Origin: Escherichia coli
GTDB lineage: Bacteria > Pseudomonadota > Gammaproteobacteria > Enterobacterales > Enterobacteriaceae
Direction: 5' to 3' (one strand)
NCBI RefSeq assembly: GCF_024700885.2
Contig: NZ_CP117016.1
DNA: 64,000 nt
The notes beneath the pieces are model-generated. The model had not been told where the DNA came from. It searched no databases and saw nothing but the letters and a program-made list of their open reading frames with translations. The translations under genes and the position numbers were made by a program. Below are positions 30,031 through 31,634 of the stretch, one piece after another (positions within the stretch are counted from its first letter, which is position 1; each line of letters starts with the position of its first letter).

Positions 30031-30053
30031 TCCCTGCCGGATGCGGCGCGAGC
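30031..30053. repeat. Left half of a REP palindromic unit split by the IS insertion (right half at 31486-31500)
   Basis: CCTGCCGGATGCGGCGCGAGC before the IS and AGCGCCTTATCCGGC after it reconstitute a REP-like palindrome. Confidence 0.65.
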
Positions 30054-30104
30054 TGAACTGCACCCCAAATGTTGGACATAATCTGACATCTGAAGGTGCA
30101 GTTT

Positions 30105-30626
30105 ATGAAACATTCATTTGAAGTAAAACTTGCCGCTGTAAATCATTACCTGGCTGGTCATGCAGGCATCATTTCTACGGCAAAACTCTTTCAACTTTCT
30201 CACACCAGCCTCTCACACTGGATTAATCTTTTTCTTCTTCACGGTCCTCGGGCACTGGATTGCAGACACAAGCGTAGCTATTCTCCTGAAGATAAACTTT
30301 GCGTGGTTCTTTATGCTCTCGGGCATTCTGAGTCTCTACCCCGGGTAGCTGCCCGGTTTAATATTCCCAGCCACAACACGGTTAAAAACTGGATAAAAGG
30401 CTACCGCAAATCTGGTAATGAGGCCTTTATCAGGCGCAGGAAGGAGAAAAGCATGACCCGTTCTGATGATACCCATGAAAACGAGGCAAACATGACGCCG
30501 GAAGAGATGAAGAATGAGCTGCGTTATCTTCGCGCAGAAAATGCATATCTGAAAGCCATGCAGGAGCATCTCCTGGAAAAAAAGCGCCAGGAGCTGGAGA
30601 AAAAACGAAAGTCATCCGGAGCCTGA
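30105..30626 (+). CDS. IS3-family transposase OrfA (HTH plus leucine zipper)
   Basis: Track ORF from alternative start 30096; ATG at 30105 (MKHSFEV). Confidence 0.85.
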   Translation: MKHSFEVKLAAVNHYLAGHAGIISTAKLFQLSHTSLSHWINLFLLHGPRALDCRHKRSYSPEDKLCVVLYALGHSESLPRVAARFNIPSHNTVKNWIKGYRKSGNEAFIRRRKEKSMTRSDDTHENEANMTPEEMKNELRYLRAENAYLKAMQEHLLEKKRQELEKKRKSSGA

Positions 30627-31453
30627 GGTGCGGACACTGCCAGCCTGACCTGTTAAAGGCTGCAGGGCTGGCCAGAAGCACGCTGTACTACCAGCTGTCA
30701 CTGCAGAAGGCTAAGGACAAGTATGCTGATGTGAAACAGCTCATAGCCTCCATCTTCCATGAACACCGGGGATGTTATGGGTACCGGCGGATCCATTGTG
30801 AGCTTCAGAAAAGAGGTCTTAAGTTCAGTGGCAAAACGGTGCGAAAACTGATGCAACAGCTCGGCCTGAAGTCTCCTGTGCGCCTGAAGAAATACCGGTC
30901 TTACCGGGGAAATATGGGACTCACTGCAGAAAATATCCTTCAGCGGCAGTTCAAAGCGGAAGCTCCCTGTGAGAAATGGGTGACAGATATCACCGAATTC
31001 AGGGCTGGCGGACAAAAACTGTACCTGTCCCCGATACTTGATTTGTTTAACGGGGAAATCGTGGCGTGGGAAACGGCCTGCAGGCCTACAGAGGAGCTGG
31101 TGAAGCGCATGTTAAATAAGGGGCTGGAAAGCCTTGCTGAAGGGGAGAAACCGCTGCTCCACAGTGATCAAGGATGGCATTACCGGATAAAAAGTTATCA
31201 GTCCGCCCTGGCGGACAGAGGGTTAGTGCAGAGCATGTCGCGCAAGGGCAACTGCCTTGATAATGCGGTAATGGAGAACTTCTTTGGTCACCTGAAAGAA
31301 GAAATGTACTATCGCCGGGACTACAGAAATGTAGAAGAGCTGGAAAATGCCGTTAACGAATACATAACTTACTGGAATCAAAAAAGAATAAAACTCAGTC
31401 TTGGGGGACTCAGTCCGGTAGAATACCGGACTGAGCATCAAAAAGCCGGTTAA
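30581..31453 (+). CDS. IS3-family transposase OrfB (DDE catalytic domain), made as an OrfAB fusion by -1 frameshift
   Basis: Slippery heptamer A AAA AAG at 30578-30584 in the orfA frame; the -1 frame is open from there to the stop at 31453. Confidence 0.8.
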   Translation, partial: KAPGAGEKTKVIRSLRCGHCQPDLLKAAGLARSTLYYQLSLQKAKDKYADVKQLIASIFHEHRGCYGYRRIHCELQKRGLKFSGKTVRKLMQQLGLKSPVRLKKYRSYRGNMGLTAENILQRQFKAEAPCEKWVTDITEFRAGGQKLYLSPILDLFNGEIVAWETACRPTEELVKRMLNKGLESLAEGEKPLLHSDQGWHYRIKSYQSALADRGLVQSMSRKGNCLDNAVMENFFGHLKEEMYYRRDYRNVEELENAVNEYITYWNQKRIKLSLGGLSPVEYRTEHQKAG

Positions 31454-31634
31454 CTGAAACTGTCCAGGTTTTGGGGTTCAGTTCAAGCGCCTTATCCGGC
31501 ATACACAGATCGCATTAGGTTATGTTTCGTTTGTCATCAACCTCAAATCATCGACATAATTTATTTTATTTCAATAAGATAGATAAGCACACCTGAGAGA
31601 ACTATTCTCTTGTCTCCTAAGAGTTGTTGCATTT

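Follow-up and report, generated by a model that had tools for sequence, protein, structure and literature searches.

The 1432-bp block at positions 30054-31485 of the window, the whole 64-kb stretch of DNA analyzed here, is with a probability of about 95% an intact copy of IS1397 whose target was the central loop of one REP sequence between msrQ and zinT, where its transposition produced a 3-bp duplication, AGC. The features of the locus are as follows.

29367..30002, plus strand: msrQ, the upstream neighbor (RefSeq annotation of an identical locus)
30035..30053, plus strand: left half of the REP/palindromic unit, TGCCGGATGCGGCGCGAGC, contiguous with the right half in IS-free strains
30054..31485, plus strand: IS1397, IS3 family, 1432 bp, 100% identical to RefSeq copies named IS1397 family
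30054..30078, plus strand: left terminal inverted repeat (IRL), TGAACTGCACCCCAAATGTTGGACA, 25 nt
30054..30104, plus strand: predicted RNA hairpin, in which the first 11 nt (30054-30064) pair with 30094-30104
30105..30626, plus strand: orfA, 173 aa, containing two helix-turn-helix domains as well as a heptad-leucine stretch
30578..30584, plus strand: slippery heptamer A AAA AAG for a -1 programmed frameshift, phase checked
30584..31453, plus strand: orfB part of the OrfAB fusion, which is 449 aa in all
31461..31485, plus strand: right terminal inverted repeat (IRR), TGTCCAGGTTTTGGGGTTCAGTTCA, 25 nt
31486..31504, plus strand: right AGC copy (31486-31488) followed by the right REP half, GCCTTATCCGGCATAC
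31635-31656: Zur-box-like palindrome, TGTTATATGTTACAATATAACA, upstream of zinT
31694..32344, plus strand: zinT, the downstream neighbor (RefSeq annotation of an identical locus)

RefSeq copies that are 100% identical to the element over the full 1432 bp carry the PGAP name 'IS3-like element IS1397 family transposase' together with a 'programmed frameshift' note. The name IS1397 is used here on the basis of these labels and of the insertion behavior described below rather than of an alignment to the type copy. The length of the element equals that of IS1397 and lies within the ~1.2-1.55 kb range of the IS3 family, and its TG...CA termini are of the IS3-family type. The two terminal inverted repeats are imperfect, being complementary at 21 of 25 positions (84%), with end sequences TGAAC...GTTCA. 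A search of the 64 kb for the left-end 25-mer gives a single occurrence, against a chance expectation of 0 matches at up to 3 mismatches, and the window contains no second IS1397 copy or end. The transposase, msrQ and zinT are all read in one direction.

The trinucleotide AGC lies directly outside both ends of the element, at 30051-30053 and 31486-31488, and the flanks read TGCCGGATGCGGCGCG(AGC) on the left and (AGC)GCCTTATCCGGCATAC on the right. Joining the two halves with a single AGC between them gives TGCCGGATGCGGCGCGAGCGCCTTATCCGGCA, a restored palindrome of 32 nt. The empty site was reconstructed by deleting the IS block and one AGC, and the resulting 600-bp join was searched against 5426 complete E. 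coli genomes. The join matches the intact msrQ-zinT spacer of strain 2014C-3338 with 100% identity, and AGC is therefore a genuine target duplication; its size agrees with the 3-4 bp duplications of the IS3 family. The msrQ-zinT site is empty in 4935 of the 5426 genomes (91%), K-12 MG1655 included, and in these IS-free strains the two flanks form one uninterrupted REP palindrome. The first-pass annotation had described an IS1397-like, IS3-family element of 1432 bp with imperfect terminal inverted repeats and an AGC duplication, inserted precisely into a REP between msrQ and zinT. The structural details are all present in the sequence, the name is supported by the identity to the RefSeq copies, and the placement holds, as the joined halves belong to the repeat family described next.

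Two properties identify the restored target as a member of the REP/palindromic-unit family. Folded as DNA, TGCCGGATGCGGCGCGAGCGCCTTATCCGGCA forms a hairpin of -12.4 kcal/mol (z -3.05) with the insertion point within the loop, and each E. coli chromosome holds 40 or more places that match a 38-nt query across the restored palindrome. No annotated feature lies beneath any of the matches listed for this query. The target fits the definition of a REP as an imperfect, hairpin-capable palindrome of ~35 nt of the GCCGGATG...CTTATCCGGC type; it is a Y-like palindromic unit, GCCGGATGCGGCG...CGCCTTATCCGGC, and has the same form as the E. coli 'REP31' given in the supplement of PMC1525189. It is extragenic, lying between the msrQ stop codon and zinT, and solitary, with no second copy of either arm motif in the window.

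The coding capacity of the element is complete. OrfA carries Pfam HTH_28 domains at residues 8-57 and 64-113, and the open stretch of the orfB frame is 30518-31453. The heptamer A AAA AAG, which had been noted from the sequence as a canonical slippery site for the orfA/orfB pair, is found at 30578-30584 in the correct phase: its first A is the third position of an orfA codon, as required if a -1 tandem slip is to shift ribosomes to orfB. The predicted OrfAB product of 449 aa has the length implied by the joined 1349-nt CDS in RefSeq. It scores 385 bits against NCBIfam NF033516 (IS3 family transposase; cutoff 160) and contains two HTH_28 domains, HTH_21, rve (E 7e-21) and rve_2. The catalytic triad D295, D355 and E391 is of the DD(35)E type, with 35 residues separating D355 and E391. 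The reading frames have the IS3-family arrangement, in which orfA and orfB overlap, orfB lies in the -1 phase and a frameshift at an A6G-type heptamer would fuse the two. An AGGAG at 30562-30566, 11 nt 5' of the heptamer, may act as a slippage stimulator by analogy with dnaX and IS911. No frameshift-stimulating RNA structure was detected 3' of the slip site, where the predicted fold is no better than that of shuffled sequences (z -1.1). Within the last orfB codons, at 31409-31435, the two 12-bp arms of a perfect inverted repeat flank a 3-nt loop (CTCAGTCCGGTA gaa TACCGGACTGAG). In the opposite-orientation variant of strain 3385, introduced below, a T-to-C change in the left arm of this repeat (IS position 1361) is not compensated in the other arm, which suggests that the structure may not be conserved.

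Established IS3-family biology provides a likely scheme for how these parts work. Translation of orfA alone would yield a DNA-binding regulatory protein, and a -1 ribosomal slip at A AAA AAG would yield the 449-aa OrfAB DDE transposase, both from one transcript. OrfAB would then move IS1397 by a copy-out/paste-in route through a circular intermediate, and the transposase itself would recognize the palindromic unit and make a 3-4 bp staggered cut at its center. The start of the element is predicted to fold in RNA as a hairpin of -31.7 kcal/mol (z -3.9), a value that 0 of 200 shuffled sequences equaled. This hairpin covers the region from the Shine-Dalgarno-like GAAGGTG of orfA to the base before the ATG, and in the predicted fold it could form only in transcripts that enter from outside IS1397. 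A hairpin that masks the ribosome-binding site at the start of the element is a classical guard of insertion sequences against read-through activation, and here it should block translation of the transposase from msrPQ read-through transcripts.

The genomes searched contain further copies whose flanks show where else IS1397 has landed.

smrB/yfcO copy: left flank GGCCTGATAAGACGCGTCA, right flank GTCAGCGTCGCATCAGGC, duplication GTCA
rrf/mobB copy: left flank TGCCGGATGCGACGCTGGC, right flank GGCGCGTCTTATCCAGCC, duplication GGC
mgtA/ridA copy: left flank TGCCGGATGCGGCGTAA, right flank GTAAACGCCCAATCCGGCC, duplication GTAA
yphB/yphA copy: left flank TGCCGGATAAGGCGTTCAC, right flank TCACGCCGCATCCGGCA, duplication TCAC

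Three of these, at smrB/yfcO, rrf/mobB and mgtA/ridA, agree with the window copy at 1432 of 1432 positions. These identical copies at three other loci, together with flanks that match an IS-free strain at 100% over 600 bp, point to recent movement of IS1397. The copy had been described at first reading as intact and potentially active, and the intact frames and the identical copies at three loci support that description. It is improbable that the copy is instead a dead relic, structurally complete but no longer able to transpose and inherited from an old insertion. Although the exact insertion is common to only 18 genomes, as a single inherited event would leave it, and a strong predicted frameshift stimulator is absent, the reading frames, the slip site, the catalytic triad and both inverted repeats are intact. 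The 1432-position identity at three loci moreover implies transposition too recent for any substitution to have arisen, and the IS-free flanks mark the insertion at msrQ-zinT as young.

All six IS1397 insertions that were read are centered in a palindromic unit and have 3-4 bp duplications (6/6; five loci, with both orientations at msrQ/zinT). The targeting of palindromic units, given in the first-pass annotation as the hallmark of IS1397, thus describes every insertion read, and the literature concurs. The published IS1397 copy of CFT073 has the same palindromic-unit-center geometry, insertion of IS1397 into REPs has been proven experimentally, and its specificity is set by the transposase (PMC1525189); PMC3184786 agrees on insertion into REPs.

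The msrQ-zinT unit is occupied in both orientations. The insertion in the orientation of the window is present in only 18 of the 5426 genomes, and 430 carry IS1397 in the opposite orientation at the identical nucleotide, also with an AGC duplication. The opposite-orientation copy of strain 3385 differs from the window copy at 13 of 1432 positions. Opposite orientations at one nucleotide mean that this palindromic unit has been struck at least twice independently. Repeat landing at one palindromic unit is expected of an element specific for palindromic units, and the two strikes at a single nucleotide illustrate the precision of IS1397 targeting.

The insertion separates two genes with regulated expression. 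MsrQ is encoded by the msrPQ operon, which is HOCl-inducible, and zinT is regulated by Zur. The msrQ stop codon (30000-30002) is 32 nt before the palindrome, and the insertion splits the REP hairpin at this distance after msrQ and puts 1.4 kb between msrQ and the zinT upstream region. It was first placed about 200 bp upstream of the zinT promoter. That figure stands for the start codon, which is 208 bp from the IS1397 end at 31485, but the Zur-box-like palindrome is nearer, at ~150 bp (149 nt). From 31489 on, the zinT upstream region is the same as in IS-free strains, the Zur-box-like palindrome included, and the insertion leaves the promoter region and this palindrome untouched. The zinT start codon is TTG; the idea that this start is peculiar to the source strain was rejected, as K-12 has TTG too.

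A consensus scan of 29900-31800 found no outward promoter in the right end of IS1397 toward zinT and no terminator after orfB, and no RNA family was detected within or beside the element when the whole window was scanned with Rfam. The promoter and terminator results bear on whether the insertion has been kept because it alters expression of its neighbors, with recurrence at the site reflecting selection and not target preference alone. Such an effect could come about if read-through or an outward promoter made zinT expression independent of Zur, or if the msrPQ mRNA became less stable once the REP hairpin was lost. In its favor, the REP 3' of msrQ is split and orfAB reads toward zinT with no terminator-like site between orfB and zinT. 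Against it, the right end of the IS has no promoter-like site, and IS-free strains have the same zinT promoter region and the same Zur-box-like palindrome, which here lies ~150 bp from the element. Occupancy of one palindromic unit in both orientations, at 18 versus 430 genomes, would suit selection, but target-site preference already predicts it, and the site is empty in 91% of genomes. Retention through altered expression is accordingly quite unlikely. We hold it equally doubtful that the insertion is non-neutral in the specific sense that the REP split after msrPQ, with orfAB directed toward zinT, couples oxidative-stress transcription to expression of the transposase or of zinT and is under selection. 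The insertions in the two orientations are natural, isogenic-like material for asking about effects on the neighboring genes.

PMC1525189 cites the descriptions of IS1397 by Bachellier, Clement, Wilde and colleagues. The window copy has the sequence of the RefSeq copies labeled IS1397 and shares with the known element the 1432-bp length, the orfA/orfB pair with A AAA AAG, the 3-4 bp duplications and insertion at the REP center, and no difference was detected. It is an ordinary case of a known element at a known type of target. The main use of the result is correct annotation of the locus, which shows a target-specific insertion sequence in textbook form; the exact insertion can also serve as a strain marker, present as it is in 18 of the 5426 complete genomes with its mirror image in 430.

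Three other elements are informative for comparison. ISKpn1, an IS3-family element of Klebsiella pneumoniae, is also specific for palindromic units and also has its specificity in the transposase (PMC1525189), but its targets, unlike those of IS1397, are palindromic units of the Klebsiella type. No ISKpn1 copy was met in the collections searched, and these gave no protein match at 60-95% identity. IS621, an IS110-family element of E. coli, also inserts specifically into E. coli REPs (PMC1525189, PMC3184786). It differs from IS1397 in that its transposase belongs to an unrelated family and in that it recognizes a 15-bp sequence and inserts on the 3' side, outside the inverted repeat, rather than in the central loop (PMC3184786). 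The IS150-group elements IS150 and ISKpn8 have a two-ORF frameshift architecture like that of IS1397 and align with it over the full length, but they share only ~43% protein identity with the window OrfAB. Neither is known to have REP specificity. Because these next named relatives in the plasmid collection are at ~43% protein identity and none occupies the 60-95% band, no other IS3 member competes for the assignment. The reading that the block is ISKpn1, an IS150-group element or some other member of the IS3 family that lies in a REP by coincidence can be set aside: the name does not come from a direct alignment to the reference IS1397, and in the plasmid collection the other named elements closest to it belong to the IS150 and ISKpn8 families, but the element is 100% identical to RefSeq IS1397-family copies, those relatives are only ~43% identical in protein with nothing in the 60-95% band, and the central position of 6 of 6 insertions in a palindromic unit excludes coincidence.

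IS1397 is widespread in the species. Copies with a coverage of 80% or more occur in 1707 of the 5426 genomes and are nearly always chromosomal. Any match at all is found in 3485 genomes, ~1800 of which have only partial matches, fragments or relatives at 95-99% identity. The genome of BH100 has at least 40 IS1397 places. The plasmid collection is nearly devoid of the element, with 3 records at ≥95% identity; the one listed is a 4.9-Mb record that is evidently a chromosome. Strain 1190 has an identical locus throughout, with the annotation msrQ, IS1397 (programmed frameshift) and zinT. This strain is 99.997% identical to window positions 1-31790 and has 7 IS1397 places.

The near-perfect match between the window and strain 1190 extends to 33075, and the two diverge inside a tRNA-Ser gene. 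The tRNA-Ser at 33014-33075, on the minus strand next to zinT, is a remnant of which only the 3' 62 nt are left; from its position it is presumably serU. ARAGORN found no intact tRNA-Ser in the window, and the intact copy presumably lies beyond it, at the far end of the prophage. A lambdoid prophage occupies 33076-64000, to the end of the window. Two ORFs lie between the tRNA-Ser remnant and the tail fiber genes of the prophage, and the features from the remnant onward are as follows.

33666-34997, plus strand: 443-aa ORF
35066-35455, plus strand: 129-aa ORF
35546-36586: tail fiber
36877-39255: tail protein
39308-42706: J
45109-47670: tape measure
51052-52104: major head
53775-55376: portal
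55576-57501: large terminase
60179-60712: endolysin
62731-62920, minus strand: STnc100 sRNA family, full-length match, 132 bits
63617-63693 and 63800-63875, minus strand: tRNA-Arg(tct) and tRNA-Met genes

At its C-terminus the 443-aa ORF encodes a GGDEF diguanylate cyclase domain (TIGR00254, 162 bits); it has no match among defense systems. Profile searches, defense systems included, gave no match for the 129-aa ORF. According to PMC4287979, lambdoid prophages carry DgcX of E. coli O104:H4 as a hitchhiker, and by analogy the diguanylate cyclase beside this lambdoid prophage recalls the DgcX setting.

Genes for two known Hfq-binding sRNAs are present in the window, each in its expected chromosomal neighborhood.

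14233-14319, minus strand: DsrA, 102 bits
22655-22744, plus strand: RseX, 97 bits

In the RefSeq annotation of strain 1190, a 147-bp integrase pseudogene fragment adjoins fliE (window ~1541-1687), and this fragment may be the scar of an old integrated element.
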